A program made the translations under genes and the position numbers. The notes under the pieces were generated by a model. It worked only from the letters and a program-made list of their open reading frames with translations, was not told the DNA's origin and made no database searches. Of a DNA stretch of 64,000 nt, positions 10,871-64,000 are shown piece after piece. The stretch is from Deltaproteobacteria bacterium (GTDB lineage Bacteria; Desulfobacterota; Syntrophobacteria; BM002). Each line of letters starts with the position of its first letter. Within the stretch, counting starts at the first letter, position 1. The DNA lies in assembly GCA_022340745.1 (NCBI GenBank), contig JAJDNL010000133.1, positions 5,315 to 69,314 on the forward strand, written 5' to 3'.

Positions 10871-10875
10871 ATTCT

Positions 10876-11040
10876 TTCAACATTGAAAACCTGGTCCTTA
10901 GAGCCAGGTCAGAGTTCAATGGCTTTGCCAGCAAAAGAGGTTTCAGTTTTCAGTTTTTTGTTTTTCTTTCCTGACACCTGACACCCGACACCTGACACCC
11001 TGAGTTTGGGTCCTTTGAGTCCGGATTCTTTACTAACTGC
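10876..11040 (+). repeat. REP-like dispersed element, family TTCGAAAACCTGGTCC..CCTGACACCTGACACC..CCGGATTCTTTACT (copy 1)
   Basis: ttcaacattgaaaacctggtccttagagccaggtcagagttcaatggctttgccagcaaaagaggtttcagt...cctgacacctgacacccgacacctgacaccctgag...ccggattctttact. It contains a CTGGTCC/GGACCAG-type hairpin. Seven copies in this window, all in the same orientation. Confidence 0.7.
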
Positions 11041-11053
11041 CAAGCTGTCCACA

Positions 11054-12700: not shown

Positions 12701-12731
12701 TTTATTAGTCCACCCATGCAACCATTATTAC

Positions 12732-26790: not shown

Positions 26791-27268
26791 CAGACTAAAA
26801 GGACATCCCTGGAAAACCGCGTCGGTGGGGGACGAGACCGACTCCATCTGTCCCCGTTGTGATGATGAGACCATTCACCGGGTGGTGGCCATGAAAGATA
26901 AAAAGATTCACCTGGTGATTTGCCGCCGTTGCAACAGCCAACACCGCTACCGACCCTCACTGGCTACCATAACCAAGAAGGTTCCTCTTCCATCCGAACG
27001 CCAAGCAAAGGTGTTGAAGAAAGTTGGGTCAGTCAGAACCTCTCGTCCCCAGGTGTCCTTGAACGAGTGGCAAGCACTCAAGGAGATAGCCGGCGACAAG
27101 GAGCCTCTGCCATACGACCCGACCGTTTCTTACCGTGAAAAACAGATCGTGTCCCATCGAATCTTCGGACTTGGCTTCGTGCGCAAGGTGATTGACAAAT
27201 CGAAGATCGAGGTGGTTTTCGAGCACGAGGTCAAGATTCTGGCTATGAGCAGACCGAGGCGAGATTAG
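26765..27268 (+). CDS. hypothetical zinc-ribbon protein
   Basis: CPRCDDE...CRRCNS ribbon. Start uncertain (overlaps oadB end). Confidence 0.4.
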   Translation: MFSGVSLVDRLKGHPWKTASVGDETDSICPRCDDETIHRVVAMKDKKIHLVICRRCNSQHRYRPSLATITKKVPLPSERQAKVLKKVGSVRTSRPQVSLNEWQALKEIAGDKEPLPYDPTVSYREKQIVSHRIFGLGFVRKVIDKSKIEVVFEHEVKILAMSRPRRD

Positions 27269-31665: not shown

Positions 31666-33845
31666 AGAAAGAAACCATTACTGTTGCCCTGACCGGCAAC
31701 CCGAACTCTGGCAAGACCACCATTTTCAATAATCTTACAGGTACTCGCCAGCATGTGGGAAACTGGCCGGGGGTGACGGTAGAGAAGAAGATGGGAACCG
31801 TGCTCCATAACGACCACCGGTTGCAGGTGGTTGACCTGCCGGGGACTTACAGTCTTACCGCATATTCCATCGAAGAAATCGTGGCCCGCAGTTTTCTGGT
31901 TGACTCGAAGCCGGATGTGGTTGTGGATATTGTGGATGCCTCCAATCTGGAGAGAAATCTCTACCTCGCCACCCAGCTTATAGAGATGGGGGTAAAGCTT
32001 ATTCTGGCCCTTAACATGGCTGATGTGGCCCAGTCACGCGGCCACCAGATTGACGCTGAGAGTCTGGGTACTCTCCTGGGTGTGCCTGTGGTTTTCACTA
32101 TCGGTACCAAGAATCAGGGGATGAAGGAACTACTGGACAAAGTGCTGGAAGTGGTGGAGGACAGGGATACGGTGAGCCGGCACATCCACATTTCTTACGG
32201 CCACGAGATGGAGAAAGAGATCAAGAAGATCCAGGACGTTATCTGGAAGGATCCCTCAGTTGGCGAGCGCTTTTCAACCCGCTGGTTGGCCGTGAAATTG
32301 TTGGAAAATGATGCAGCCGTGCAAGAGAGGGTACGATCGTTCGGGGAGATCGGCGAAGAAATTTTGGCTCAAGCTGAGGCGAGTCGCGAGCGGTTGGTTG
32401 AGTTTTATAAGGACGACGCTGAAATGGTACTCACAGACCAGCGTTATGGCTTTATTGGGGGGGCTCTCAAGGAGGTCCTTAAAGTCTCCACCAAAAGCAA
32501 ACTTGATCTCTCCAGGCAGGTAGATCTGTTTCTTACCAATAGGATTCTGGGTTTTCCCGTCTTCATTTTCTTCATCTGGGCCATGTTTCAGCTGACCTTT
32601 ACCGTGGGGGCCTATCCAATGGAATGGATAGACGCCGGGGTGACCTGGCTCGGGGCCGTTGTGACTGCGCTGCTGCCGGCGGGACTCCTACAGGACCTAC
32701 TGGTCAACGGCATCATAGCCGGAGTGGGTAGTGTAATTATTTTCTTGCCCAACATTTTGATTCTTTTTTTCTGTATTGCCGTGTTTGAGGATACAGGCTA
32801 CTTGGCGAGAGCCGCCTTTATCATGGACAGGGTAATGCATGTCATTGGTCTGCACGGCAAGTCGTTTATTCCCCTGCTCATGGGTTTTGGTTGCAACGCT
32901 CCGGCGATCATGGCTACTCGCACCCTCGAAAGCGAGCGTGATCGGTTGCTGAGCATCCTGATCAACCCTCTGATCAGTTGCTCAGCCCGATTACCCGTGT
33001 ATATACTGCTGGCCGGCACATTTTTCGGAGCCAGTGCTGGCAACGTCATCTTCAGTATCTATGGGCTCGGCATTGCTCTGGCCATAGCCATGGGCAAGCT
33101 CTTCAGTGTGACTCTTTTTCGGGGTGACATCGCTCCCTTTGTAATGGAACTTCCCCCCTATCGGGCGCCAACATTGAAGAGTTTGCTGATTCACATGTGG
33201 GATCGCAGTCAGATTTTCTTGCGTAAAATGAGTGGAGTGATCCTGGTAGGTTCCATCCTGGTCTGGGTCCTCAGCAGTTTCCCACGAAGCCCCGATCTGC
33301 TCCGGGGCCAGGCTGTGGAGACAGGGGCCACGAGTGCCACCCAGGAACGGGTGCTCACCGCTGCTGAATCCCAACGATCAGCGTCGGCCTCGATGGTGGA
33401 CGAGAATCTGAAGAGTTCGGTAGCAAACATTGAAATGGCAAGGCTGGAAAATAGCTTTCTCGGGAGGTTGGGCCATTTCATTCAACCAATCTTTGCTCCC
33501 TTGGGTTTTGACTGGCGAACGAGTGTTGCCGTGCTCACAGGATTTGTGGCAAAAGAGATTGTGGTGAGCACGCTTGGAGTATTGTATGCAGCCGGAGCCG
33601 ATGTGAACGAGGAGAGTGAAGCCTTGCGCCGGTCCTTGCGGGCCTCAGGCATGACTGCTCTCGGGGCATACACCCTCATGGCTTTTGTGCTTATTTACAT
33701 TCCGTGTTTGGCTACGGTGGCGGTGATTCGGCGCGAGACCAATTCCTGGAAGTGGACCGGGTTTAGTATTGGCTATTCTCTGGTCCTGGCATGGATGGTC
33801 TCCTTCCTAATCTATCAAGGCGGGAAGATTGCTGGGCTGGGATAG
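31662..33845 (+). CDS. feoB: ferrous iron transporter FeoB
   Basis: 727 aa. GTG start overlapping feoA TGA (GTGA). G-domain ALTGNPNSGKTTIFNNLTG, gate motifs and multi-TM region. Confidence 0.9.
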   Translation: MKKETITVALTGNPNSGKTTIFNNLTGTRQHVGNWPGVTVEKKMGTVLHNDHRLQVVDLPGTYSLTAYSIEEIVARSFLVDSKPDVVVDIVDASNLERNLYLATQLIEMGVKLILALNMADVAQSRGHQIDAESLGTLLGVPVVFTIGTKNQGMKELLDKVLEVVEDRDTVSRHIHISYGHEMEKEIKKIQDVIWKDPSVGERFSTRWLAVKLLENDAAVQERVRSFGEIGEEILAQAEASRERLVEFYKDDAEMVLTDQRYGFIGGALKEVLKVSTKSKLDLSRQVDLFLTNRILGFPVFIFFIWAMFQLTFTVGAYPMEWIDAGVTWLGAVVTALLPAGLLQDLLVNGIIAGVGSVIIFLPNILILFFCIAVFEDTGYLARAAFIMDRVMHVIGLHGKSFIPLLMGFGCNAPAIMATRTLESERDRLLSILINPLISCSARLPVYILLAGTFFGASAGNVIFSIYGLGIALAIAMGKLFSVTLFRGDIAPFVMELPPYRAPTLKSLLIHMWDRSQIFLRKMSGVILVGSILVWVLSSFPRSPDLLRGQAVETGATSATQERVLTAAESQRSASASMVDENLKSSVANIEMARLENSFLGRLGHFIQPIFAPLGFDWRTSVAVLTGFVAKEIVVSTLGVLYAAGADVNEESEALRRSLRASGMTALGAYTLMAFVLIYIPCLATVAVIRRETNSWKWTGFSIGYSLVLAWMVSFLIYQGGKIAGLG

Positions 33846-37273: not shown

Positions 37274-40200
37274 TCAACGGACACCGCCAGGATGGCGGTT
37301 TCGTCGATTGTTTCTATGATTGATCTTGGAATTTCGCACAGGGCCGGGTCCGTTTGACAGTACTGCAGAAACCACCTCAGCACCGAAGTACCGATTTACT
37401 TCTTCAACCAAACTCCGATCAGGTTTCACTCTAATTCTATCACCCAATCGTATGACGGCCTCACAGTGCTCGTCCGTGCACAGATGCACGTATGCCTTGC
37501 AATCGCCTTTGTGACGCCCCAAGATAGCTTTGAGATCAGCCAGATTTTCCTTGGTGACTGTTTGCGCCGGGAGTTTAATGTGAATTGCTTGGGTCATATG
37601 CTCCTTGGCTTCCAGGAGGGTGAGAATGCGCTGTGCTATGATCTTGGCTCCCTTCTCCTCCTGCTGTACAGTGCCCACAATCAGCAAGGGATCATCCACC
37701 TCAAGGAGGTGGCGGCTACTCTGATAGATGTCGCTAAAAATAACAACCTCCACAGTACCCTTGCGGTCTTCCAGGGTTAAAAAGGCCATACGGTCACCTC
37801 TTTTCGTGGTAATCTCCTTGAGATCGGCATTGAGACCACAGAGGATTATTTGGATTCCATCAGTCTTGTCCGCAATACTTGAGATATCCACTATGGCGAA
37901 GGCTTGCATCTCTTTTTCGTAAGCGTCAAGAGGATGACCGCTAAAGTAAAAACCGAGAGCCTCCTTTTCCATGGCAAATTTCTGTCGGTGGTTCCATTCA
38001 GGGATATTCGGTAAAGGGGGCTCGGAGTTACGCTGCTGCCCGGCAAAAGTGCCGAACATACTTATCTGGCCGCTCAAACGATCTTTCTGGATGGTTTGCG
38101 CCATCTCCATTGCCTCTTCCAGTGCGGCCATGGCTTGACTCCGAACAAGGTGAAGAGAATCAAAGGCGCCGCACTTGATGAGGCTTTCCACTACACGACG
38201 GTTGACGCGTTGCAGATCAACCCTTTCACTGAACTCATAGAGAGATGAGAAGGGGCCACCATCAGCCCTTGCCTCAACGATTGACTCGACTGCAGCCGCA
38301 CCCACGTTTTTTACCGCACCCAAACCGAAGCGAATACTATACCCTACTACAGTGAAGTCCCATGTGCTCAGATTTACATCAGGAGGAAGTATTTCCAGTT
38401 CCTTTTCCCGGCACTCATTCAGGAGTTTGACCAAGCTGTCGGAGTTGCTCAAAAAGCTATTCATCAGTGCCGCCATATACTCGAGAGGATAGTGGGCCTT
38501 GAGATAGGCTGTCTGGTAAGCTATAAGCGCATAGGCGGCACTATGGGATTTGTTGAACCCATAGCCGGCAAATTTTTCCATGAGATCAAAAATGTGCGCA
38601 GCTTTCTTGAGATCAATACCGTTTTCCTCGGCTCCTGCGAGAAAACGATCACGCTGTGCCGCCATCACCTTCGGGATTTTCTTGCCCATGGCCCGCCTCA
38701 GAATATCAGCCTCGCCGAGGCTATAATTGGCCAGGACACTGGCAATCTCCATTACCTGTTCCTGATAGAGAATGACCCCGTAGGTGTCCCGGAGAATGTC
38801 CCGCAGTTGCTCCAGTTCGTAGCTAACTTTTATATTGCCGTGCTTTCCGTTGATAAAGTCGTCCACCATACCGCTCTCGAGGGGACCGGGGCGGTAGAGA
38901 GCAACCAAGGCGGTTATGTCGTTGAAATTTTCAGGCCTAAGCCGTACAACCAAGTCGCGCATCCCGGAGCTTTCCAACTGGAACACACCGGTTGTATCCC
39001 CGCGGCTCAGGAGTTCAAACGTTTCCGGATCGTCCAGGGGCAGGTCACGCATGTCCAATTCGGCACCATTATTCTCCTTGATGAGTTTAACCGCATTGTC
39101 GATGACTGTAAGGTTACGGAGCCCCAAAAAGTCGAACTTGATAAGGCCGGCTTTTTCCACGTATTTCATTGGAAACTGAGTCACCACTTCGCCCTTGGAA
39201 CCCTTATAGAGAGGCATGTACTCGACGAGGGGAAGATCTGAAATGACAACGCCGGCTGCATGAGTGGAAGCATGACGTGTGAGGCCCTCCAGGGCCAGGG
39301 CCACATCGAAAAACTCTTGAAGCGCCGGATCTTTGCGAAGTTCCTTGAGGCGAGGCTCAGTCTTGAAGGCTTTTCTGAGCGTCATGTTGAGAACCGGAGG
39401 AATGAGCTTGGCAATCTTGTCAACCTCTCCATAAGCCATGCCGAGGGCGCGACCCACATCGCGGATAACAGCTCGCGCCTGCATAGTGCCGAAGGTGGTG
39501 ATTTGAGCAACCCGATCTTTGCCGAAATGTTCTGAAACATACTGCAGGACCCGGTCCCGGCCATTCATGCAGAAATCAACGTCGATGTCCGGCAGGCTAA
39601 GCCGTTCCACATTGAGAAAGCGTTCGAAGATCAGGCCATGATCTATGGGATCGAGATCAGTAATGCCAAGGCTATAAGCCACCAGGCTGCCAGCCGCAGA
39701 CCCCCTACCAGGGCCGACAGGTATCGCATTCTCTCTGGCAAACCGAACAAAGTCTGCGACTATGAGAAAGTAGGTGCTAAATCCCATCTTTTGGATGACC
39801 GAGATCTCGTGAGCCAGGCGCTGGCGATATTTTTCCTCTTCCTCCCCGCTGAACTCTGGGTGCTTCTTGCGAATTTCTGCAAGCCTTTTGGCAAAGCCCT
39901 CCTCGGTTTCCTTTTCAAAACGGGACTCTGCCGACTCACCCGGCTCAAGAGGGAACTCTGGGAAGTGAGGTTGACCAAGCTCCAAACTGACGTGGCAGCG
40001 TTCTGCTATTGAGAGGGTATTGTGCAAAGCGGCCGGGACATCCTGGAAGGTGGACCACATCTGCTCAGGAGATTTGAAATAGAGCTCACTGGTTGAAAAC
40101 CGCATACGCTCTTCATCCAGTACCGTCTTTCCTGTCTGGATGCAGAGCAGCACGTCGTGCGCCTTTGCATCTTCTGCTCTCAGGTAGTGGCAGTCGTTGG

Positions 40201-40819
40201 TTGCAACCAGAGGAATGCCGGTTTTTTCACTGAGGTGGATGAGATCACGGTTGACAATTTCTTGCTCTGATATGCCGTTTGCCTGCAGTTCCAGGAAGAA
40301 ATTATCCTTGCCGAAGATGTCGCGATACTCCATCGCAGCCTGTTCGGCGCGGGTATAACTGGCGGCCAACAGATGGGATGCCACCTCGCCATGTAAACAA
40401 GAAGAAAGGCCAATGAGCCCCTCGTGATACGTGGAGAGCAGCTCCTTGTCCACCCTGGGTTTGTAGTAGAAACCTTCAAAGTTGGCGAGAGTCAGCAGCT
40501 TGAGCAGATTTCGATAGCCCGTATTGTTCTCAGCCAAAAGAACAATGTGGTGGCTTCGGGCGCCACCGAGACCCTCGCCGCGGTCCCTTCGGCTTTTCGG
40601 CGCCACGTAAATCTCACAACCCAAAATGGGCTTGATCCCAAATTCGTTGGCTTTGACATAGAATTCAAGTGCGCCGTGCATGTTGCCGTGATCAGTGACG
40701 GCGACGGCAGGCATACCGAATCCAGCGGCGGTCCTGAGCACGTCAGTGATGCGGATGGCACCGTCTAGAAGGCTGTACTCGCTATGCACATGCAGGTGGA
40801 CGAATTCCTTTGACGACAT
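37274..40819 (-). CDS. dnaE: DNA polymerase III alpha subunit
   Basis: 1181 aa. PHP domain start MSSKEFVHLHVHSEYSLLDGA.., polymerase core, OB-fold. Confidence 0.95.
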   Translation of the reverse strand: MSSKEFVHLHVHSEYSLLDGAIRITDVLRTAAGFGMPAVAVTDHGNMHGALEFYVKANEFGIKPILGCEIYVAPKSRRDRGEGLGGARSHHIVLLAENNTGYRNLLKLLTLANFEGFYYKPRVDKELLSTYHEGLIGLSSCLHGEVASHLLAASYTRAEQAAMEYRDIFGKDNFFLELQANGISEQEIVNRDLIHLSEKTGIPLVATNDCHYLRAEDAKAHDVLLCIQTGKTVLDEERMRFSTSELYFKSPEQMWSTFQDVPAALHNTLSIAERCHVSLELGQPHFPEFPLEPGESAESRFEKETEEGFAKRLAEIRKKHPEFSGEEEEKYRQRLAHEISVIQKMGFSTYFLIVADFVRFARENAIPVGPGRGSAAGSLVAYSLGITDLDPIDHGLIFERFLNVERLSLPDIDVDFCMNGRDRVLQYVSEHFGKDRVAQITTFGTMQARAVIRDVGRALGMAYGEVDKIAKLIPPVLNMTLRKAFKTEPRLKELRKDPALQEFFDVALALEGLTRHASTHAAGVVISDLPLVEYMPLYKGSKGEVVTQFPMKYVEKAGLIKFDFLGLRNLTVIDNAVKLIKENNGAELDMRDLPLDDPETFELLSRGDTTGVFQLESSGMRDLVVRLRPENFNDITALVALYRPGPLESGMVDDFINGKHGNIKVSYELEQLRDILRDTYGVILYQEQVMEIASVLANYSLGEADILRRAMGKKIPKVMAAQRDRFLAGAEENGIDLKKAAHIFDLMEKFAGYGFNKSHSAAYALIAYQTAYLKAHYPLEYMAALMNSFLSNSDSLVKLLNECREKELEILPPDVNLSTWDFTVVGYSIRFGLGAVKNVGAAAVESIVEARADGGPFSSLYEFSERVDLQRVNRRVVESLIKCGAFDSLHLVRSQAMAALEEAMEMAQTIQKDRLSGQISMFGTFAGQQRNSEPPLPNIPEWNHRQKFAMEKEALGFYFSGHPLDAYEKEMQAFAIVDISSIADKTDGIQIILCGLNADLKEITTKRGDRMAFLTLEDRKGTVEVVIFSDIYQSSRHLLEVDDPLLIVGTVQQEEKGAKIIAQRILTLLEAKEHMTQAIHIKLPAQTVTKENLADLKAILGRHKGDCKAYVHLCTDEHCEAVIRLGDRIRVKPDRSLVEEVNRYFGAEVVSAVLSNGPGPVRNSKINHRNNRRNRHPGGVR

Positions 40820-53115: not shown

Positions 53116-54030
53116 CTAGGCAGCTAAGGTAGCCGTCGATCCCACACAGCTGACAGCAAAGGTTTCGCCCAATTCCTGACTCATGCGGATGTGGGGCCGA
53201 AAGCCGGTGCAATGGCCGGTGAGGGCGAGTTGAGCCCCGCAATCCTTGATGCCGTTGATGGTCTGGGTGAGGACCTCCTCGCCCACTTGAGCCAGGTGCA
53301 GACCTCCAATCACAGCATAGATTTGAGAGTTTCCTGTAATTTCCTGGGCGTATTGTATAGTATTCACGATTCCCGGATGAGAACAACCCGAAATAATTAC
53401 CAACCCCTTCTCACCTAAATTAACCACCAAGGCTTGCTCATCAACGAGAGGGTCGTCCATATCCTCACCGTTTTTGATGATTTTGGCCCCAGGCATGGGA
53501 GCTTCAAAATCAGTGCGGCGGGGAATTTCACCGGTAAGAAAGACACCTTCCTGCACTTGCTGAGCATCCGTAGCGCAGGTCAATTGAGCACCGGTTTTCT
53601 CTATCTTCTCACGTTCAAGTTTCCAGGGCCCCACTTTACCCCTCGGAGTCATGAGGTATTTGGGCCAGAAGACATCAGGGTGGCAGTAGATGGGCAGAGG
53701 TGTTCCCCGCCACTCCAAGAAACCGAGAAGCCCTCCATAGTGGTCAGGGTGCCCATGAGTCAGGAAAAGGGCATCAACCTCGGCGGGGGTCCGTCCCAAA
53801 GCTTCAAAGTTGTGTTTAAAGGGTTCAAAGGCATTGCCGGTATCCATGAGCAAGCAAAATGTGCTTTCACTCCGGCTGATGTCCACCAAATAAGAAAGTC
53901 CGTGACCCGCCAAGAGTGGTTTTTTTAGCTTGCCAGGAACTGCGCGCTCGACCAAGGGAGTGGAGGGTTCAAAAACGTCGATGTAGTTATCAACGACCGC
54001 GGTGACACTGACTTTTTCCGGTAGCGACAT
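53116..54030 (-). CDS. MBL-fold metallo-hydrolase
   Basis: ..LTHGHPDHYGG.. HxHxDH motif. Confidence 0.75.
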   Translation of the reverse strand: MSLPEKVSVTAVVDNYIDVFEPSTPLVERAVPGKLKKPLLAGHGLSYLVDISRSESTFCLLMDTGNAFEPFKHNFEALGRTPAEVDALFLTHGHPDHYGGLLGFLEWRGTPLPIYCHPDVFWPKYLMTPRGKVGPWKLEREKIEKTGAQLTCATDAQQVQEGVFLTGEIPRRTDFEAPMPGAKIIKNGEDMDDPLVDEQALVVNLGEKGLVIISGCSHPGIVNTIQYAQEITGNSQIYAVIGGLHLAQVGEEVLTQTINGIKDCGAQLALTGHCTGFRPHIRMSQELGETFAVSCVGSTATLAA

Positions 54031-54276
54031 AGCGAGCCTCCTCTAGCCGTTTCAAATAATAAAAAAAGGATTGATACTATTTCTCCCGAGCCGCAAAAAT
54101 ACAACTGAAAAACCCTCTTTCTTGCACGAGAAAAATGGCCGAAAGTGGAAGTGAATATTTCCAAGTCAACTGCCAACAGTTTATACCATTGTGCATTAAA
54201 GTGCAAAGTTTTTTGGCCTCGTCGGCTCCAGGAAATAATAGCAACTGCCTAATGGTTTCAGTTTACTCCTGTACTA

Positions 54277-54305
54277 TGGTATTATTTGTTGCAAGAGGTT
54301 GCAAC
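54277..54305 (+). promoter_or_regulatory. extended -10 promoter (TGgTATTAT) overlapped by inverted TTGCAA pair (operator) upstream of the sigma-54 activator gene
   Basis: atGGTATTATttGTTGCAAgagGTTGCAAC. Two palindromic TTGCAA hexamers 10 bp apart, at or just after the predicted TSS. Confidence 0.45.
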
Positions 54306-54393
54306 ATTAGGTTCTCGTGTTCGTTGCCAATAGTGACGCGGGCTAGGTTTCCAGGAGAACCGAACGGGTCAGAGGGAAAAGGGCTCCCAATCA

Positions 54394-56139
54394 ATGGTGA
54401 AAGAGAAACCGCCTTACAGCACAAACATCTTGCACGAACAATTCAGCCAGTTGCTCGAGAACCTTGGCATCGGCGTCTTCACTGTGAATAGGGAACGGCA
54501 GATCACCTCCTTTAATGAGACGGTGGAGCGGCTTACTGGCTTCCGTGAAGAAGAAGTACTTGGAAAAAAGTGCCACGAGATCTTTTTTAGTGATCTGTGC
54601 CATGGCAGGTGCATGTACCCGCAAGAGGTTGAGCTCGAAGGCAAACCGCATGTCTTTGAGATGGATATCTCCGATCAGGAAGGCAACCTGCACCGCATAA
54701 CCAAGCTGGTCTCTCCTCTCCTTGGTAGTGAAGGACAAGTCACGGGTTGCATCGAAGTCTTCCAAGATTTCTCAGTTTACAATCAACTGCTGGACCGAAT
54801 TCGATATGACGAGCATCGGCTCAAACTCATCCTTGACAACCTCGACATTGGGATTTTTACGGTAAACCGTGGTGGGCACATAACCTCATTCAACTCAATG
54901 GCCGAGAAAATCACGGGCTACCAGCGGCAAGAGATTGTGGGCCAGCATCACGCCAAACTCACGGGTTGCGATCGGCCTGGGGAGACGTGCAGCCTGAAGG
55001 AATCAATCAGCACGGGCAAGTCCCTTGCCAACCTCCACCGTCGATTATTTACCAAGGACGGGCGCAACCTACCCATCCGGGCAAGTTTTATGGCTCTCCG
55101 TAACGAAGCGGGAAATACTATCGGTGGGCTGGAGACCTTCCAGGATCTCTCCCTAATCCAACAGCTCAACCGTGCCATAAGCAATAAGTACTCCTTCGCC
55201 GATATGATCGGCAAGGATGGAGTAATGCAACAGATATTTGAAATTCTCCCGGTGGTGGCTGAAAGTGAAGCCAATGTTCTGGTAGAAGGGCCTACGGGTA
55301 CAGGAAAGGATCTGTTGGCCAAAATTATCCATAATGCTTCACAGCGAGGAGAAAAGCCTTTCGTAAAGGTCAATTGTGCAGCCTTGCCTGATAATCTTCT
55401 GGAATCAGAGATGTTTGGCTACGTCAAAGGTGCCTTCACCGGGGCGGATAGGGACAAACCTGGCCGTTTCCAGGAGGCGGACGGCGGTAGTATTTTTCTA
55501 GATGAAATTGGTGATTTACCCCTATCCTTGCAAGCGAAACTGCTGCGAGTATTGGAAGATAAGGAATTCTACCCCCTGGGGGGGCGTGAGCTTTGCCGAG
55601 TTGACGTGCGAATCATCGCCGCCACCAACCAGGTATTAGAAGATCTGGTGCGAGAAAAACGGTTCCGAGAAGATCTTTTCTATCGTCTCAATGTGATGCA
55701 GCTGGAACTTCCGCCTTTAAAAGAACGACGGGGCGATATACCTTTGCTCATAAGTAATTTTATTAAGAAACACAATGTTACCAAAGGATCTGCGGTGTCA
55801 CGAATTGATGAAGATGCAATGGACATACTGCTGAACTACCACTATCCTGGCAACATACGAGAACTGGAAAACATCATAGAGCACGCCGGAGTGCTATGCC
55901 AGGGAGAGCTCATTGAGCGGCGGCACTTGCCAATGTATATTCAGGAAATTACGGACCACAGGGGAGTAGATAGAATTGCCAGAGCCGAAGTTACAACCAG
56001 ACGAGATCAGCGGGAGAGGGAGGTCATTGTGGAGGTGTTGAAAAAAAACCGCTGGCAACGACAGAAAGCTGCCCAGGCCCTTGGTATGGATAGAACCACG
56101 TTGTGGCGCAAGATGAAGAAGTACGATATTTCTCCTTGA
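54394..56139 (+). CDS. sigma-54-dependent transcriptional activator with two N-terminal PAS domains (no receiver domain)
   Basis: 581 aa. PAS x2. AAA+ core with GTGKDLLA Walker A, GAFTGA loop, ..GGSIFLDEIGDL.. and C-terminal Fis-type HTH. Confidence 0.9.
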   Translation: MVKEKPPYSTNILHEQFSQLLENLGIGVFTVNRERQITSFNETVERLTGFREEEVLGKKCHEIFFSDLCHGRCMYPQEVELEGKPHVFEMDISDQEGNLHRITKLVSPLLGSEGQVTGCIEVFQDFSVYNQLLDRIRYDEHRLKLILDNLDIGIFTVNRGGHITSFNSMAEKITGYQRQEIVGQHHAKLTGCDRPGETCSLKESISTGKSLANLHRRLFTKDGRNLPIRASFMALRNEAGNTIGGLETFQDLSLIQQLNRAISNKYSFADMIGKDGVMQQIFEILPVVAESEANVLVEGPTGTGKDLLAKIIHNASQRGEKPFVKVNCAALPDNLLESEMFGYVKGAFTGADRDKPGRFQEADGGSIFLDEIGDLPLSLQAKLLRVLEDKEFYPLGGRELCRVDVRIIAATNQVLEDLVREKRFREDLFYRLNVMQLELPPLKERRGDIPLLISNFIKKHNVTKGSAVSRIDEDAMDILLNYHYPGNIRELENIIEHAGVLCQGELIERRHLPMYIQEITDHRGVDRIARAEVTTRRDQREREVIVEVLKKNRWQRQKAAQALGMDRTTLWRKMKKYDISP

Positions 56140-56149
56140 TTGACCCTTG

Positions 56150-56187
56150 TTGCAAAATGTTGCAAAATATGTTGCAATACGTTGCAA
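56150..56187. promoter_or_regulatory. four phased TTGCAA palindromes, candidate enhancer (UAS) for the adjacent sigma-54 activator
   Basis: cTTGTTGCAAAATGTTGCAAAATATGTTGCAATACGTTGCAAATAG. Hexamers at 56150, 56160, 56172, 56182 (spacing 10/12/10), ~170-200 bp upstream of the -24/-12 promoter. Confidence 0.55.
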
Positions 56188-56353
56188 ATAGAAATAAGAC
56201 TAAAAGATTTATTTATTATAGCTAGTTACAAAATTTTAGTCTGTCAAACGTTGCATGGCTGCAGCAATATCCCACCCATCTTTCAACCGCCTTCCGACTT
56301 AAATCCACCTTAACTAATTGAAATAATAAACATTTGTCTCTTGAGTTCCATTA

Positions 56354-56369
56354 TGGCACAGCACTGGCA
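56354..56369 (+). promoter_or_regulatory. sigma-54 (-24/-12) promoter for the sensor kinase operon
   Basis: TGGCACagcacTGGCA: GG (56355-56) and GC (56367-68) 12 nt apart, matching the TGGCAC-N5-TTGCA consensus. 38 nt before ATG 56407 (SD AGGAGAG). Confidence 0.65.
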
Positions 56370-56406
56370 TTGCCATCTGGGCACCCATCCCCAGGAGAGT
56401 GTGCTC

Positions 56407-58741
56407 GATGGCAGCGTCACAAAACAATCAGTCCGGCCGAGAAATCCTCAAAACCGTTCGGCGAAGCCTCAGTTTCAAGCTTGGCCTTGCGGTTGGTTTG
56501 ATTTTTCTGGCTGCGGTGCTTGCACTGACTTCTTACCTTGTCTCACTCCAGGAACAGCAGTCTTTTGAGCGAATGGAGGAAAATGTCAACCAATTTAGCG
56601 ACACGGTGAAACGTGGCACCCATTACAGCATGCTCAAGAATCAGCGCGAGAGCCTACACAAAATCATCGAGGCCATAGGCGCCCAGCCGGGAGTTGAAAA
56701 CATCCGCGTATTTAACAAAGATGGCGCCATCATGTTTGCCAGCCGGAAGGAGGACATCGGCAATTATGTTGACCTGCAGGCGGAGGCCTGTTACGCCTGC
56801 CACCGTCGTGATCAACCTCTTGAACGGCTGAGCATGAGCGACCGCAACCGTACCTACCTTAGTCCAGCCAATTATCGAGTGCTAGGGGTGATCAACCCCA
56901 TCTATAACGAATCCAGTTGTTGGCAGGCTGCATGTCACTACCACCCTGAGAAACAAAAGGTTCTTGGCGTGCTGGATATTGGTCTCTCCCTTGAATCCCT
57001 TGATCAAGAAATTCTGGCCACCAAGAAAAAGATTACCTTATTTGCTGCCATAATATTTCTGCTTGTTACCGTCATTGTGGCCGGCTGCATCCTCTACTTC
57101 GTTAAGCGGCCAATTAGCCGCTTGGTCTCGGCCACCAAACAGATTGCAAGCGGCGATTACGAGCAGGAGGTGACGGCCATCACTCAGGATGAGATTGGCG
57201 ATCTGTCCCTTGCCTTCGACGAGATGCGAAGAAATATTAGGGACCAGGCCCACGCCTACCAGAAGAGCAAAGAGGAATACCAGACCCTATTCGAACAAGT
57301 CCCCTGTCAGATCAGTGTGCAAGACCGGGATTTCCGCATTATCCAAGTAAACAGAGTCTTCCAAGAGCAGTTTGGCGAGCCACTCGGGGAATACTGCTAC
57401 AGAGCCTACAAGGGCAGGGATGAGGTCTGCCCCGTCTGTGCAGTTGAAAACACATTTCAGGATGGCAAGCCCCACTCCAGCGAGGAGGTGGGGCTGAGCA
57501 AGGACGGCACCCTCGTTCACATGCTGGTTTCAACTTCTCCCATCTTCAATGAAGAGGGCGAGGTGGTGGCCGCCATAGAGATGTCGACGGACATCACCCA
57601 GGTGCGGCTGCTGGAAGAAGAATTGAAACGCTCAGAAGAAAAGTACCGCACCCTATTCAACAGTGATCCCAACCCCATCTTTGTCTTGAACTTAGAAACC
57701 TTGGAGATCCAGGATGCCAACGACCGGGCTTTAAACTTTTACGGCTACGAAAAGGGCGAGGTCCTGGGAGGAAGCTTTCTTGATCTGGCCGATCCTCAAG
57801 AGTGGGACCGACTCAGGAAAGTCTCCTGGGATAAAGAGGGCGCTATCTTTAAGGTGAAGCACCACACCAAAGACAATGACTCGATCCATGTGAACATTCG
57901 TTACTCCAGTTTAAAGGACCTGGGCCAGGATACGGTGATTGTCACCACTTCCGATGTGACCGAACGGGTAAAGAGCGAAGCGCAGCTCATCCAGGCGAGC
58001 AAAATGGCCACTTTGGGAGAGATGTCTGCCGGCGTTGCCCACGAGTTGAACCAGCCGCTTTCCGTGATCAAGACCTCTGCCAGCTTTATAGCCAAAAAGA
58101 TAGATCGGAACGAACCGGTGGATCCGGACATTCTCCGAGAACTTGCTACGGAGATGGATAGCCAGGTGGACCGTGCCTCCTTGATCATCAATCATCTCCG
58201 CCAATTTGGCCGGAAGACCGATATTCGCAAGATGCATGTCCAGCTCAACGACTGCATTCGTGGAACCTTTACCGTCCTGGGACGCCAGCTCGAAGTGCAT
58301 GGCGTCAAGGTGGAGCTGCACCTGGAAGAAGAACTCCCGTCCATTAGAGGAGACAGCAACCGATTAGAACAGGTCTTTCTCAACCTCATTATGAACGCCA
58401 GAGACGCCATGGACGAAAAGGAAGCACTGGCGGGGAAAGGGGTTGAAAAGGTCTTGGAAATCTCCTCATTCCGAGAAAATGGTGAGGTGGTGGTGACCAT
58501 ATCCGATACCGGGTTAGGCATGAGCGAAGAGGTGAAGGAAAAGATATTCGAACCTTTCTTCACCACTAAACCAGTGGGAAAGGGAACCGGGCTTGGTCTG
58601 TCCATCAGTTTTGGCATCGTCCGGGACTACGACGGCAACATAGATCTGGAAAGCGTGGAGGGGCAGGGGACTACTTTCAGGATTAGGTTTCCAGCCGTAG
58701 AGGAGGAAACCCGGGAGCCGATGGAGGTGCTTGGTGGCTGA
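56407..58741 (+). CDS. sensor histidine kinase with periplasmic CxxCH (c-type haem) motif domain, HAMP, PAS x2, HisKA, HATPase
   Basis: TM1 and TM2 flank a ~165-aa periplasmic region containing EACYACH and SSCWQAACH. Then HAMP (..IASGDYEQEV..), PAS, H-box ..MATLGEMSAGVAHELNQPL.. and ..GTGLGLSIS.. ATPase motifs. Confidence 0.85.
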
Positions 58742-60341
58742 AACTAACCTGCACCGCGTCCTTTTGGTTGACGACGAAGAGGGTATCCGCAAGGTTGTGT
58801 CAATTGCCCTTAAGGATGCCGGCTATGAGGTTTGGACTGCCGAGAATGGCGAGCAGGGTCTGGACATCTTCAGACGCCAGCAGCCACCGCTCGTTCTTAC
58901 GGATATCAAGATGCCGGGCATAGATGGCATCGAGGTTCTACGTCGCATCAAGGCAATGGAGACCGATTCCGAAGTGATAATCATCACAGGCCACGGCGAG
59001 ATGGAACTGGCCATCAGCGCCCTGCAGCTGGAGGCCTCAGATTTTATTACCAAGCCGATTCATGATGAGGCCCTGTTCATTTCTCTAAAACGCGCCGAAG
59101 AAAAAATCTTTCTCAAAAGGCAACTCCGTGACTACACGGAGAACCTTGAACAGAAGGTCCAGGAGGCTACCGCTGAAATCCAACGTATTAGCGATTTTCA
59201 GGCCAATCTCATCGACAACTCTCTGGATGGGATAGTGGCCGGAAATAAGGAGGGAGAGATTGTTATCTTCAACAGTAGCGCCCAGCTGTTGACCGGTTAT
59301 TCGGAGGAGGAGGTGGTGGACAAGCTATCTCTGGGTGATATTTATGGTCCGGAGGTAGAAGAGAAATGGCGCACCAATTGGTGCGAGCTCAACAGAAACG
59401 CAGTGGAAGAGGCTGGCACCTATTTGGACACTACCATCCGAACCCGAGAAGGAGAGCAGATTCCAATTCGACTGACAGGCGTGAGGCTCCTTCAGGCTGA
59501 TCAGGTAATGGGCTGTGTTACCTTCTTTCAAGACTTGCGCGACATTCGCCGTCTTGAAAAACAGCTGGTGCAATCAGAGCGGATGGCGGCCATCGGCCAG
59601 ACCTCAGCCACTATCGCCCATGCCATAAAGAATATTGTCGGTGGGCTGAAAGGCGGGATGTTTGTGGTCAACAAGGGCTTCGAGTTGTCAAACCAGGACT
59701 ATCTTCAGAATGGCTGGGACATGGTGCAGCGCAACGTTAGCAAGATCTCCAGCCTGGCCATGGATCTGCTCACTTACTCCAAGGAGCGCAAACCTGAATA
59801 CCGCTTGGCTCAAGTTAATGAGGTTGCTGGGGAAGTGGTGGATCTCATGAAAGCGCGGGCAGAGGAATTCAAGGTCAATCTCATTCTGGATGCCACCGAT
59901 GGGTTGGAACCGGTGGCAATGGATGTAAGCGGTATTCATCAATGTTTGGTCAATCTGGTTAGCAATGCCATTGACGCCTGCTGGCCGGAAATCTGCGGTC
60001 ATGAACGGGGGCAGGTTGTGGTGCGCACGTGCCGCCACCCGGACTGGGCAGTTTGTGTGGAGGTTGAAGATAACGGTTGCGGCATTGAGGAGGGCGACAA
60101 GGAGAAGATCTTTACCACCTTTTTCAGCACCAAAGGTGCCGATGGAACAGGACTGGGCTTGATGAACGTCCAGAAAATAGCCCGAGAACATCAAGGACGC
60201 ATGGAGGTTGAATCCGTGCTGAATAAAGGCTCGTTATTCCGCCTGCTGCTACCTTCCGGGCCAGCCGAAGAGCGGCAAAATGGCAGTGAATCTGATCTGA
60301 GAGAGAATGCAAGCCTCGAACCGCCCTCGGCAGGGGCCTAA
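58731..60341 (+). CDS. response-regulator receiver fused to PAS and histidine kinase (hybrid REC-PAS-HK)
   Basis: TTG/GTG start overlapping upstream stop by 11 nt. REC (..LLVDDEEG..LVLTDIKMPGIDG..), PAS, H-box ..AAIGQTSATIAHAIKN.., ATPase G-boxes. Confidence 0.85.
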   Translation: MVAETNLHRVLLVDDEEGIRKVVSIALKDAGYEVWTAENGEQGLDIFRRQQPPLVLTDIKMPGIDGIEVLRRIKAMETDSEVIIITGHGEMELAISALQLEASDFITKPIHDEALFISLKRAEEKIFLKRQLRDYTENLEQKVQEATAEIQRISDFQANLIDNSLDGIVAGNKEGEIVIFNSSAQLLTGYSEEEVVDKLSLGDIYGPEVEEKWRTNWCELNRNAVEEAGTYLDTTIRTREGEQIPIRLTGVRLLQADQVMGCVTFFQDLRDIRRLEKQLVQSERMAAIGQTSATIAHAIKNIVGGLKGGMFVVNKGFELSNQDYLQNGWDMVQRNVSKISSLAMDLLTYSKERKPEYRLAQVNEVAGEVVDLMKARAEEFKVNLILDATDGLEPVAMDVSGIHQCLVNLVSNAIDACWPEICGHERGQVVVRTCRHPDWAVCVEVEDNGCGIEEGDKEKIFTTFFSTKGADGTGLGLMNVQKIAREHQGRMEVESVLNKGSLFRLLLPSGPAEERQNGSESDLRENASLEPPSAGA

Positions 60342-60358
60342 AGGGAGAGGAGGAAGCT

Positions 60359-60841
60359 ATGGTTAAATACAGCAACATTCTGTATTGCAGCGATTTTTCC
60401 GAAGAGTCGGAGATGGCATTCCACCATGCCGTTGACTTCTGCCAACGTTATGACGCCCGCCTTCACATAATTCACGTGCTGCACTCCGGTTACAAGTACA
60501 TGCGCCATGTAGTGAATGAATATGTGGAGGAAGGTAAAGAAGAAGACGTAGCAGATGAGGAACTTGTCGCCAAGGCAGAAACGGACCTCAAGGCACGATA
60601 TGGCGAGAAGTTAGAGGAGTGCAAGGAGGTAACCTTCGCAGCACGGGTCGGAGTTCCTTTTGTGGAGATTGTCCGTTACGCCAGAGAAAACAAGGTGGAT
60701 TTCATCGTCATGGGCGCCTCAGGGAGCTCTGAGTTGGACAAGCAAACTTTTGGCAGCACCGTGGAAAACGTCGCAAGACGGGCCCACTGTCATGTAATGG
60801 CCATCCGGAACCCAGAGATTGCCTTCAAGTTGCCCGGTTGA
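60359..60841 (+). CDS. universal stress protein (UspA family)
   Basis: ..ILYCSDFSE..ARLHIIHV..VMGASGSSELDKQTFGSTVENVARRAHCHVMAIR. SD GGAGAGGAGG. Confidence 0.85.
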   Translation: MVKYSNILYCSDFSEESEMAFHHAVDFCQRYDARLHIIHVLHSGYKYMRHVVNEYVEEGKEEDVADEELVAKAETDLKARYGEKLEECKEVTFAARVGVPFVEIVRYARENKVDFIVMGASGSSELDKQTFGSTVENVARRAHCHVMAIRNPEIAFKLPG

Positions 60842-60955
60842 GTCGGCAGACAACAGTCTTGGTCAGGTTGGAAGGTAAATCAGAGTGGCAGTGTATGGTC
60901 ACAAGACCAAGCCATTAAATAAAAAATAAATGATTCCAGTTAGAAGGAGAATGCC

Positions 60956-61354
60956 ATGAAGAAAAAGAAAATCTTGGTGGTGGATGATGAGCTGGACATG
61001 CGGACCTTCATCACCACTCTGCTGGAGACCAGTGGCTATAAGCCGATTATTGCCGTCAACGGAGAAGAGGGCATTCTGAAAGCCCGGGAGAAAAAGCCGG
61101 CGGCAATCATTCTAGATGTGATGATGCCTCGAGAGGGCGGGATTCAAATGTATCGGGAATTGAAAACTGACGAGGAACTCAAGGATATTCCGGTGATTAT
61201 GCTCTCGGCCATAGCCAAGAAGACCTTTTTCCATTCCCAACAAGTATTGAATACCTATCGGGGACAAAAGGTGCCTGAGCCGGCGGCCTATATCGAAAAG
61301 CCTCCGGAGACCGAGGAACTTCTACAGGTGCTAGAACAATGTATCGGTTGTTAA
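60956..61354 (+). CDS. single-domain response regulator (CheY-like receiver)
   Basis: MKKKKILVVDDELDMR..AAIILDVMMPREGG.. Confidence 0.85.
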   Translation: MKKKKILVVDDELDMRTFITTLLETSGYKPIIAVNGEEGILKAREKKPAAIILDVMMPREGGIQMYRELKTDEELKDIPVIMLSAIAKKTFFHSQQVLNTYRGQKVPEPAAYIEKPPETEELLQVLEQCIGC

Positions 61355-61422
61355 GCTTGAGCGGCTGGTGGTTTCTTATTCAACCAGTGCCAGGCGAAAT
61401 CATCTATCTGCGAGGTTAGACT

Positions 61423-64000
61423 ATGGCGGCGAAAATTGGAGTCTATATTTGTCATTGTGGAAGCAATATTGCTGGCAAGGTTGACCCTGGGGAAGTGGCA
61501 GAATTCGCCAAGGGTCTCAAGGATGTGGTGACGGCCAGGGATTACAAGTTTATGTGCTCAGATCCCGGGCAGGAGATGATCCAGGACGATATTAGGAACA
61601 TGGGACTCAACCGGGTGGTGGTGGCCTCCTGTTCCCCGAGGCTACACGAAAAGACCTTCCAGGGTGCCTGTCAGCGGGCAGGTATCAACCCTTATCTTTT
61701 CCAAATGGCTTGCATTCGTGAACACTGCTCCTGGGTCATCGAGGACAAGGATGAGGCTACCAGCAAGGCTAAAACCCTGGTGGCGGCAGCAGTAAGTCGG
61801 GTCAGTCATCATCAGAGTCTGGCGACTCGGGAAGTAGGTGTGCACCCGGATGTTTTGGTGGTAGGAGCTGGCATCGCCGGAATCCAGGCTTCCCTGGACA
61901 TTGCCAAGTCCGGCCACCAGGTCTATTTGGTAGAGAGAAACCCGTCAATTGGCGGGCACATGATGAAGTTTGACAAGACCTTTCCCACCCTGGACTGCGC
62001 CGCATGTATTTCAACACCGAAAACGGTGGCAGTGGCGCAAGAGCCTAATATTCATCTCTTTTCCTATAGTGAGGTGGCCGAGGTAGGCGGCTATGTGGGT
62101 AATTTCACTGTCAAGATCAAACGCAACGCGCGCTATGTCCGGGAGGATCAGTGTACCGGCTGTGGTCAGTGTGCTGAGGTCTGCCCGGTGTCGGTACCCA
62201 ACGAGTTTGATGAATACCTCAGCGAGCGCCAGGCCATTTATCGCTTCTTCCCCCAAGCAGTGCCCATAACCTTCTGCATTGAGAAAAAAGATCGAGCACC
62301 CTGCACCATTACCTGTCCAGCGGGCATAAACGTGCAAGGCTATGTCCAGCTCATTAAGCAGGGGAAGTATAAAGAAGCGGTCCAACTCATCATGGAGCGT
62401 TTACCCCTGCCAGGTGTTCTGGGCCGTGTCTGTCCTCACCCGTGCGAGTTCCAGTGTCGTAGGGCGGAGATGGATGAGGCCATTGCCATAAGGGACTTGA
62501 AGCGCTTTGCCGCTGACCAGGTAGATTTGGAAGCTCTGCCCTTGCCTGAAATCGAGGAAAAGCAGGAAAGAGTGGCGGTGGTGGGCTCGGGCCCCGCGGG
62601 ATTGACTGTGGCCTACGATCTGCGGCTCAAGGGTTATCAAGTCACCATCTTTGAAGCGCTCCCGGTGTTGGGCGGCATGCTGCGTGTGGGCATTCCCGAC
62701 TACAGGCTGCCTCCAGAGATTTTGGACCGAGAAATCCAGAACATTCTCAGGTTGGGCATCGACACTCAGACCGACAAGAGACTGGGATTCGATTTCACTC
62801 TGGATGACTTGAGGGAACAAGGTTACAAAGCTATTTTTCTGGGCATCGGTGCCCACCGAAGTTTGAAGCTGGGCATAAGTGGCGAGGAAGATTTCGAGGA
62901 CGTCCTGGATGCAGTGGATTTCCTTCGGGAGGTGAATCTCGGCGATCGGCAAAAGCCGGGTAGCCGGGTGGTCGTTGTTGGCGGGGGCAACGTGGCCATT
63001 GATGCTGCCAGAGGGGCGTTGCGACTCGGCTGTGAGCAAGTGGACATTGTCTACCGGCGAAGTCGCGAGGAGATGCCCGCCTATGCAGAAGAGATTGAGG
63101 GTGCTTTGTCCGAGGGAGTGAAGATCCACTATCTCACAGCACCTATGCGCATTGTGGGCGAAAACGGCAGGGTTACCGGATTTGAGTGTCTCCGAACCGA
63201 ACTGGGGCCACCGGATGAAAGCGGCAGGCGAAGGCCGGTGCCGGTGGAAGGCTCGGAGTTCATCATAGATTGCGACGCGGTCATACCGGCTATTGGCCAG
63301 CAGCCCGAGGTAGATTGGACTGTGGATCAGACTGATCTCGAGATCACCCGCCGGAACACATTAGTGGTAAGTCCAAACACCATGCAAACTGCTATCCCTG
63401 ATGTCTTTGGTGCTGGCGACGCGGTGAGCGGTCCGGCAACGGTAATAGAGGCGGTGGCTGCAGGTCATAAAGCGGCGGAAGCCATGCATCGCTACATTAA
63501 CGGGGAAGATCTCGACCTCTTGGCTGAAGAGTTGGTAGCCAAGGAGCCACCGGGGCAGGACTGGCAGGAGATTCCTGAAGATGCTGTCCCAGAGTCCAGG
63601 GCTCATCTGGCTCATCGGGATCCTCAGGAAAGCGCTTCTTCCTTTGACGAGGTAGCCCTGGGATTCAGCGAGGATGAAGCACAGCGGGAGGCGAGCCGCT
63701 GCATTAATTGTGGGATCTGCTGTGAGTGCATGGAGTGTGTTAGGGCCTGTGAAAGAGATGCGGTTGACCACCAAATGATTGAGGAAGAGGTCGAGATAAA
63801 GGTGGGTAGCATCGTCATGGCCACGGGATTCCAAACCCTGGACCCCACTCCAATGAAGCAATACGGGTACGGAGAATTTGATGAGGTTTACACCGGCTTG
63901 GAGTTTGAGCGGTTAAACAACGCGGTTGGACCCACAGGTGGGCAGATCCTGATGAAGAACGGCAAGGTACCGGAAAGCGTTGGCATCTTTCACTGTGTAG
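61423..64000 (+). CDS. hdrA: HdrA-like FAD/FeS flavoprotein with inserted GltD/NfnB-like NAD(P)H-binding domain (partial, continues beyond window end)
   Basis: Open frame from ATG 61423 to the window end (verified by hand, not in ORF track). MAAKIGVYICHCGSNIAG.. Cys-cluster, ..VLVVGAGIAGIQAS.. FAD motif, 2x[4Fe4S] ferredoxin CTGCGQCAEVCP, second Rossmann ..VAVVGSGPAGL.. (GltD-like), C-terminal CINCGICCECMECVRAC. Confidence 0.8.
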   Translation, partial: MAAKIGVYICHCGSNIAGKVDPGEVAEFAKGLKDVVTARDYKFMCSDPGQEMIQDDIRNMGLNRVVVASCSPRLHEKTFQGACQRAGINPYLFQMACIREHCSWVIEDKDEATSKAKTLVAAAVSRVSHHQSLATREVGVHPDVLVVGAGIAGIQASLDIAKSGHQVYLVERNPSIGGHMMKFDKTFPTLDCAACISTPKTVAVAQEPNIHLFSYSEVAEVGGYVGNFTVKIKRNARYVREDQCTGCGQCAEVCPVSVPNEFDEYLSERQAIYRFFPQAVPITFCIEKKDRAPCTITCPAGINVQGYVQLIKQGKYKEAVQLIMERLPLPGVLGRVCPHPCEFQCRRAEMDEAIAIRDLKRFAADQVDLEALPLPEIEEKQERVAVVGSGPAGLTVAYDLRLKGYQVTIFEALPVLGGMLRVGIPDYRLPPEILDREIQNILRLGIDTQTDKRLGFDFTLDDLREQGYKAIFLGIGAHRSLKLGISGEEDFEDVLDAVDFLREVNLGDRQKPGSRVVVVGGGNVAIDAARGALRLGCEQVDIVYRRSREEMPAYAEEIEGALSEGVKIHYLTAPMRIVGENGRVTGFECLRTELGPPDESGRRRPVPVEGSEFIIDCDAVIPAIGQQPEVDWTVDQTDLEITRRNTLVVSPNTMQTAIPDVFGAGDAVSGPATVIEAVAAGHKAAEAMHRYINGEDLDLLAEELVAKEPPGQDWQEIPEDAVPESRAHLAHRDPQESASSFDEVALGFSEDEAQREASRCINCGICCECMECVRACERDAVDHQMIEEEVEIKVGSIVMATGFQTLDPTPMKQYGYGEFDEVYTGLEFERLNNAVGPTGGQILMKNGKVPESVGIFHCV

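Follow-up and report, generated by a model that had tools for sequence, protein, structure and literature searches.

A probable sigma-54 enhancer circuit at the gene of an OrpR-like activator in Desulfobacterota

A 64-kb stretch of contig JAJDNL010000133.1 from a deltaproteobacterial genome assembly (GCA_022340745.1) was examined in the present study; it is referred to below as the window, and all coordinates are window positions unless a related locus is named. The locus of interest comprises the gene of a bacterial enhancer-binding protein (hereafter the activator), clusters of a GTTGCA motif on either side of it, and a sigma-54 (-24/-12) promoter preceding a sensor histidine kinase gene and further genes on the same strand (Table 1). 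Six copies of TTGCAA surround the activator gene, two at its promoter (starting at 54289 and 54299) and four past its stop codon (56150, 56160, 56172 and 56182), and all six read GTTGCAA, with starts at 54288 and 54298 before the ATG at 54394, and at 56149, 56159, 56171 and 56181 in a distal array that begins 10 nt past the stop at 56139. Comparison with related loci suggests that the locus is a local sigma-54 enhancer circuit, in which the activator gene adjoins its own conserved sites and target promoter, a reading to which we assign a probability of roughly 0.7. The mechanism is of the textbook sigma-54 enhancer type and the activator group, which is OrpR-like, is unstudied; the interest of the locus resides in the module under control rather than in the mechanism.

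Table 1 Features of the activator locus in window coordinates
Feature	Position	Strand	Basis and remarks
T-rich block TTTC[A/G]nTTT, -35 region of activator promoter	54256..54264	+	T/C columns invariant or near-invariant in alignment of 13 clade-A loci
Extended -10 TGgTATTAT, sigma-70-type activator promoter	54277..54285	+	read in sequence; conserved as TGTGGTATTAT in 13 clade-A loci
Operator GTTGCAAGAGGTTGCAAC	54288..54305	+	two GTTGCA copies 10 bp apart; nearly all bases invariant in 13 loci
Activator, bacterial enhancer-binding protein, 581 aa	54394..56139	+	PAS1, PAS2, AAA+ with GAFTGA, Fis-type helix-turn-helix (HTH) (Pfam, translation)
Distal upstream activating site (UAS), four GTTGCA(A) half-sites	56149..56187	+	start-to-start spacing 10, 12, 10 bp; every clade-A locus has counterparts (-208 to -174 from GG)
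Proximal UAS GTTGCAtggcTGCAGCAA, derived GTTGCA-N4-TGCAAC inverted repeat	56250..56267	+	-105 to -107 from GG in 13/13 clade-A loci
Integration host factor (IHF)-like site TAACTAATTGAAA	56311..56323	-	reverse orientation of WATCAANNNNTTR, one mismatch
Sigma-54 promoter TGGCACagcacTGGCA	56354..56369	+	GG 56355-56356, GC 56367-56368; conserved in 49/55 related loci
Sensor histidine kinase	56409..58741	+	transmembrane helix, periplasmic domain with CxxCH and Cx4CH, transmembrane helix, HAMP, PAS, PAS, HisKA, HATPase (Pfam, translation)
Receiver (REC)-PAS-HATPase hybrid protein	58734..60341	+	start overlaps kinase stop codon; Pfam
Universal stress protein (Usp)	60359..60841	+	Pfam; linked to module in clades A, B and C
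Single-domain receiver	60956..61354	+	closest to DVU0259/DivK family, below model cut-off
HdrA-like flavoprotein with inserted GltD/NfnB-like domain	61423..64000	+	Pfam; runs off window end

Across the window TTGCAA is not enriched (22 observed versus 27 expected) and six of the 22 copies fall in the two clusters flanking this one gene, so the signal lies in clustering. The half-site total is likewise at chance level (35 observed versus 37 in shuffles); four GTTGCA/TGCAAC sites within 40 nt occurred in none of 500 dinucleotide-preserving shuffles of the window, and three in 21 of the 500. The copy numbers on either side of the gene and the phasing of the distal array were read at the positions given in an initial annotation of this DNA, and the near-consensus sigma-54 promoter that it had pointed out proved to be the sole zero-mismatch match to TGGCAC-N5-TKGCW in the 64 kb, beginning 167 bp beyond the distal array. 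The enhancer geometry it described also held, although its range of -170 to -210 is counted from the -24 element; relative to the predicted kinase transcription start at ~56380, the distal array lies at about -193 to -231. A further canonical -24/-12 match, TGGCATgctctTTGCT, was noted at 8553-8568 on the minus strand, in the gap between two minus-strand open reading frames (ORFs; 8606-10870 and 7412-8434) and ~120 nt before the ATG of the latter; as no GTTGCA array lies nearby, it probably represents another sigma-54 promoter with no relation to the first.

Orthologues of the activator are numerous in metagenomes, at 57-99% identity. A scan of species-representative genomes with the PAS-PAS region of the activator yielded 80 loci, all of them in Desulfobacterota assemblies with labels such as Syntrophobacterales and Desulfobacterales. 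Hexamers were counted in the 300 nt past the activator stop codon at 55 loci, against the remainder of each locus. The top-ranking hexamer was GTTGCA/TGCAAC, with 191 occurrences against 6 expected (32-fold), followed by TGTTGC, while TTGCAA ranked third (87 observed, 3.6 expected; 24-fold). This order of enrichment indicates that conservation attaches to the asymmetric half-site (T)GTTGCA/TGCAAC(A) and not to the TTGCAA palindrome that had been proposed initially. Judged against related sequences, an array of four TTGCAA palindromes is particular to this genome; in most close clade-A relatives two direct copies follow an inverted pair in the distal array. A -24/-12 element lies downstream of the activator gene in 49 of the 55 loci, with sites at fixed offsets from its GG. 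These are -208 to -174 (distal) and -106 (proximal) in clade A, to which the window belongs; about -198 to -152 (distal, variable) with proximal sites at -92 and -82 in clade B; and -285 to -250 (distal) with proximal sites at -116 and -106 in clade C. Clusters of two or more sites occur almost exclusively beside the activator gene in 798 kb of related loci, and motif and promoter stay at its 3' end while the downstream genes differ between clades. The activator is also the only protein with a DNA-binding domain in the conserved module.

Two conserved elements in front of the sigma-54 promoter had been missed by the initial annotation. The proximal inverted repeat (56250-56267) is a clean GTTGCA-N4-TGCAAC in clades B and C, as well as in L012 and L014, whereas the clade-A version reads TGTTGCAnnnCTGCAGCAACA, which looks like a 3-nt insertion. 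The element at 56311-56323 is a candidate IHF site with a predicted bending role: YAAnnnnTTGAWW, the reverse of the IHF consensus, is found between the proximal site and the promoter, with an offset from GG of -44 (clade A) or -54 (clade C), and the strict pattern occurs in 26 of 49 loci, compared with a background of 0.011 per 70 nt.

The four repeats past the stop codon might instead act as RNA, forming a 3'-UTR hairpin or terminator of the activator transcript. A 140-nt stretch does fold better than 200/200 shuffles (z = -3.1), which is explained by the palindromic cores pairing with one another. However, the array is followed by no U-tract and coincides with no terminator-like site, and the hexamers are conserved while spacers and orientation vary. 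The hexamer is moreover found again at the activator promoter and in the proximal repeat, whose distance to the sigma-54 promoter is fixed, and we regard an RNA role as very improbable. An Rfam search of 53900-61500 gave two sub-threshold chance matches only.

Alignment of the 13 clade-A loci delimits a near-invariant block before the activator gene, TGTGGTATTATTTGTTGCAAnnGGTTGCAACAT, made up of the extended -10 element and the operator; its flanks diverge, and its distance to the ATG ranges from 37 to 107 nt. The operator sites start 3 nt past the -10 hexamer and span the predicted transcription start near 54292, the second GTTGCA extending into the palindrome GTTGCAAC. An extended -10 promoter at this position was correctly recognised in the initial annotation, but the TTGCAA copies follow that promoter rather than overlap it. 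The T-rich block further upstream may represent a weak -35 or the site of another factor. Two half-sites lying over the start of an extended -10 promoter are arranged as expected for repression. Alternatively, the sites could be activating, inert, or in the service of the divergent metallo-beta-lactamase-fold gene at 53116-54030, given that the direction of control is read from position only, that the promoter, with its weak -35, might need help, and that the operator is present in clade A only, clade C having a sigma-70-type promoter free of such sites. Set against this are the location of the sites just past the -10 hexamer and over the predicted start, which is typical of repression, the lack of any -24/-12 element between them and the activator ATG, their proximity to the ATG in L004 and L009 (just 37 nt), and the fact that the block is fixed to the -10 element and not to the upstream gene. 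Non-repressing sites are in our view quite unlikely. A sigma-54 promoter was also looked for before the activator gene itself and before the divergent gene, and none was found. Operator-type autoregulation would be clade-specific, since clade C lacks the block and has a different conserved sigma-70-like promoter before its REC-kinase-...-activator genes; the sharing of one motif between the regulator promoter and the target promoter, as first described for the window, accordingly holds in clade A and fails in the other clades.

Three side observations concern these upstream regions and motifs. The clade-C promoter, CTTGCAGATTTAATCAAATTGGTWCAAAAT (L029-L071), is a conserved sigma-70-like promoter of the REC-kinase-REC/kinase-activator operon, located some 100-200 nt before the REC gene that lies ahead of the kinase, and has no GTTGCA operator; L034 is an exception in having three GTTGCA sites further upstream. 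In the window, CATTGTGCATTAAAGTGCAAAGTTTTTT at 54187-54214, upstream of the activator gene, is conserved in L001, L003, L008 and L012; it holds a GTGCA direct repeat with an 11-bp period, and its minus strand resembles a sigma-70 promoter (TTTGCA, 16 nt, TATAAA, A-tract) for the divergent metallo-beta-lactamase-fold gene. The 8-mer palindrome GTTGCAAC additionally occurs in isolation at 26928-26935, 32890-32897 and 40200-40207, with no partner sites or nearby sigma-54 promoter match.

The activator has the PAS-PAS-AAA+-HTH architecture assigned to it initially. Pfam matches are, in order, PAS, PAS, Sigma54_activat (PF00158, E = 3e-69), AAA_lid_14 and HTH_8 (residues 538-577), with no Response_reg match and hence no receiver domain by this search, and the translation contains the Walker motifs and loop as GPTGTGKD, FLDEIG and GAFTGA. 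Cysteines C60, C69, C73 and C119 of PAS1 are invariant in eight diverse orthologues, and the first three form a C-x8-C-x3-C triad with the same spacing as C52/C61/C65 of OrpR (DVU2106) from Desulfovibrio vulgaris Hildenborough. Those OrpR residues are required for [4Fe-4S]-based redox sensing, and the published account (PMC8359166) reports inhibition by the PAS domain in oxidised OrpR, DNA binding in either redox state, a need for IHF, and a regulon made up of the adjacent orp operons only. The activator is 47% identical to the OrpR-like PAS-AAA-HTH protein of locus L146 over PAS2-AAA-HTH, and its PAS1 aligns with the PAS domain of that protein (31% identity), the triad cysteines of the two falling opposite one another. 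In PAS2, a degenerate duplicate of this cysteine-bearing domain, the first triad cysteine is replaced by histidine and the second by proline while the third is kept (residues 183-199); in clade B it is the first alone that PAS2 retains. Based on the 47% identity and the aligned triad, the activator is judged to be an OrpR paralogue with a duplicated PAS domain. Since the triad is retained, redox is the likely signal, and sensing through an Fe-S cluster is, by analogy with OrpR, probably the best explanation of what the activator responds to. A PDB sequence search with the PAS-PAS region returned generic PAS domains only, and in NCBIfam neither the activator nor the kinase nor the receiver reached the cut-off of any family.

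The first gene behind the promoter was confirmed as a haem-motif sensor kinase starting at ATG 56409, the start (in preference to GTG 56399) that comparison of the regions upstream of orthologues supports. CYACH and CWQAACH lie between two predicted membrane helices, and among 56 orthologues CxxCH is invariant and Cx3-4CH conserved. The protein is therefore a candidate two-haem-motif sensor, haem attachment being predicted from the motifs. A dCache_1 match was weak and below the family cut-off, and comparison of the periplasmic domain with PDB sequences gave no significant match. The same-strand genes after the kinase follow with an overlap and then gaps of 17, 114 and 68 nt, the sole terminator-like feature downstream being a weak hairpin after the receiver gene.

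Gene order around the composite of UAS and sigma-54 promoter (P54) is permuted between clades. Clade A has activator, P54, haem kinase, REC-PAS-kinase, Usp, REC and HdrA-like. The clade-B order is kinase ... Usp, REC, activator, P54, REC, HdrA-like (1137 aa) and MvhD (MvhD/FlpD family), so that the counterpart of the window's receiver is there the first gene behind P54. Clade C has REC, kinase, REC-kinase, activator, P54, a 180-aa unknown protein, Usp-Usp, REC, beta-propeller and NarI-like, and clade D consists of kinase, activator and REC-PAS-kinase, with neither the intergenic region nor the motif. Given the tight spacing, the one weak hairpin and the permuted order, the kinase would head a longer unit, and the initial view of a self-contained circuit does not hold; other clades place REC-HdrA-MvhD or hypothetical-Usp-Usp-REC behind P54. 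In the window the operon probably runs on through the hybrid kinase, Usp and DivK-like receiver into the HdrA-like gene, which is missing from the ORF listing because the window end truncates it. Two minus-strand ORFs (62401-63129 and 63361-63861) were considered as conserved genes and rejected as antisense shadows of the plus-strand HdrA-like gene; both still yield tblastn matches in related loci.

Metagenomes were additionally scanned for GTTGCA-N4-TGCAAC followed by a sigma-54 promoter, which gave at least 120 matches, of which an estimated handful are due to chance. The first downstream gene encodes the clade-C 180-aa protein (with Usp) at no fewer than 24 loci, a NifX-like protein at 15 or more, a receiver at seven or more, an AbfD-like protein at seven or more, and a TadG-like protein at six or more; the remaining families are pairs, triples or singletons among the matches listed. 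Among the matches listed, 76 were informative, comprising 35 with a same-strand activator gene immediately upstream (20 orthologues at 53% identity or higher and 15 more distant), five with a divergent activator gene upstream, 10 with an activator elsewhere in the locus, and 26 with no activator gene nearby. Orp-like, AbfD-like, TadG-like and other operons carry the same layout beside activators 31-50% identical to that of the window. In L146 (locus positions 7679-12923), an orp-like operon with Nitro_FeMo-Co and ParA/Fer4 genes lies behind GTTGCA-N4-TGCAAC and a sigma-54 promoter; similar operons were found in at least about 14 metagenome loci (L100, L108, L173, L186, L188, L193 and others), and activators of ~460 aa with PAS-AAA-HTH architecture and the cysteine triad precede three NifX-like loci (L146, L186 and L193). 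From these sequences, OrpR relatives outside Desulfovibrio seem to use a DNA motif different from that of D. vulgaris OrpR. The GTTGCA motif, as judged from its distribution, is not private to the activator studied here and marks no exclusive regulon, contrary to the initial proposal that it would do so; because half-site and promoter layout are common to paralogous activators, scanning for the motif alone would lump their regulons together.

Several of the matching loci deserve separate mention. In L084, L124 and L135 the composite of site and promoter occurs twice on one strand, ~630 bp apart, the first copy being followed by a 60-aa ORF, with no activator gene in view. In L123 (3733-3854) and L126 (4548-4668) it falls after a REC-PAS-kinase gene and before that of a DivK-like receiver, with no activator within the locus; in some genomes, these sites could belong to the same regulon at an unlinked position. 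A third set (L090, L097, L105, L110, L114, L155 and L170) has the composite site before the gene of a ~497-aa protein that by sequence resembles the 4-hydroxybutyryl-CoA dehydratase/4-hydroxyphenylacetate hydroxylase type, and at some of these loci the nearby activators are just 31-37% identical to that of the window.

A shared layout of this kind would also suit an explanation in which a paralogous activator, such as an OrpR-like protein encoded elsewhere, or some other factor occupies the GTTGCA sites while the adjacent activator works other promoters. The orp-like, AbfD-like and TadG-like operons with their more distant activators are in keeping with it, as are the 26 listed matches without an activator, for which at least 1.8 kb of upstream sequence was at hand. 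Yet every motif-bearing clade has the motif directly behind the gene of this activator, whatever is downstream, and clade A has a further copy over the promoter of the activator gene itself. Sigma-54 activators are, furthermore, usually encoded beside their targets, according to PMC8359166 (citing Kazakov 2015), and we consider binding by another protein unlikely.

The favoured reading, a local circuit run by the adjacent activator, has to be held against several points that weaken it. The putative recognition helix of the HTH, RTTLWRKMKKY, is invariant even in clade D with no motif nearby, which made covariation between helix and motif uninformative and unusable as a test. Paralogous activators use the same site and promoter layout, and cross-binding within one cell is possible. 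The sequence bound by OrpR of D. vulgaris, GGGCGYRTTTTGCGCCC, is a different one. The -35 of the activator promoter is poor and its transcription start is a prediction only. A terminator scan found none between the activator gene and the kinase, so read-through from the activator promoter may feed kinase expression. Finally, binding, transcripts and cofactors are deduced from sequence for all members of the family.

In the proposed local circuit, the Fis-type HTH of the activator would bind (T)GTTGCA half-sites at three places. The first is the operator over its own extended -10 start, where occupancy would block RNA polymerase and steady the activator level; the second and third are the four-site array past the stop codon and the inverted repeat 70 bp further. 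DNA bending at the IHF-like site, which separates the proximal repeat from the -24/-12 promoter, would let the bound AAA+ oligomer reach sigma-54 polymerase and bring about promoter opening near 56380. The resulting transcript would encode the two-haem-motif periplasmic sensor kinase, the REC-PAS-kinase hybrid, Usp, the DivK-like receiver and, very probably, the HdrA-like redox enzyme. As the activator is without a receiver and PAS1 may carry a [4Fe-4S] cluster, its activity would probably require a low redox potential in the cytoplasm, while its binding to DNA would be constitutive. More tentatively, and with doubts that exceed our confidence, the module may form a two-tier redox cascade across Desulfobacterota, in which an Fe-S PAS activator controls a di-haem kinase phosphorelay (hybrid kinase, DivK-like receiver and Usp) together with HdrA/MvhD-type or membrane-bound redox complexes. 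If such a cascade exists, the six half-sites in their 4+2 layout would template one activator hexamer, and sulfate reducers and syntrophs would possess, in this activator, an uncharacterised regulator of their energy-conservation genes. The analysis provides a predicted cis-regulatory map (operator, two activating sites, bending-protein site and promoter) for an uncharacterised module that is widespread in uncultured Syntrophobacterales-like and Desulfobacterales genomes.

Literature searches for GTTGCA with sigma-54 returned unrelated papers only, those for HdrA with sigma-54 and Usp no account of the window module, and a paper on the D. vulgaris sigma-54 regulome no matching entry. The layout itself is familiar from NtrC/NifA-type enhancers (glnAp2, nifH and Pu), in which multiple sites 100-230 bp upstream and a bending-protein site precede a -24/-12 promoter, and NtrC, XylR and PspF also occupy sites at the sigma-70 promoter of their own operon, as proposed here. 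Unlike these systems, the window activator would sense through PAS-PAS with cysteines and not REC, GAF or V4R, lacking the N-terminal receiver domain of NtrC-type response regulators, and its six half-sites have a 4+2 layout of mixed direct and inverted orientation. Geobacter c-haem sensors of the GSU0582/GSU0935 type carry CxxCH in a periplasmic domain between two membrane helices, as does the window kinase, which differs in having two motifs, one of them Cx3-4CH, and no sequence match to solved structures. The LuxO UAS of Vibrio qrr genes (TTGCAWWWTGCAA) likewise consists of TTGCA/TGCAA half-sites in inverted repeats upstream of a sigma-54 promoter (PMC10162802); the spacer of the 13-bp LuxO site is 3 nt as opposed to 4 nt in the window family, LuxO is a phosphorylated response regulator, and the organisms and small-RNA targets are unrelated.

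The closest known counterpart is OrpR. OrpR resembles the window activator in being a one-component sigma-54 activator without a receiver, with a triad-bearing PAS domain, a target promoter beside the regulator gene, and an IHF-type element (a candidate in the window) between UAS and promoter; it differs in that its gene is flanked by two divergent target operons. The OrpR-like proteins of other Desulfobacterota, 47% identical to the window activator, share the use of GTTGCA-N4-TGCAAC as well, although they have a single PAS domain and ~460 aa, compared with two PAS domains and 581 aa. The targets also differ, being the kinase, REC-PAS-kinase, Usp, receiver and HdrA-like genes in the window instead of the orp genes for NifX-like proteins and Mrp/ParA-like Fe-S ATPases. 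OrpR, the sole studied Fe-S PAS activator, would thus gain a second, larger group of paralogues, tied to haem-motif kinases and HdrA/MvhD-like genes whose regulation is poorly known in these organisms.

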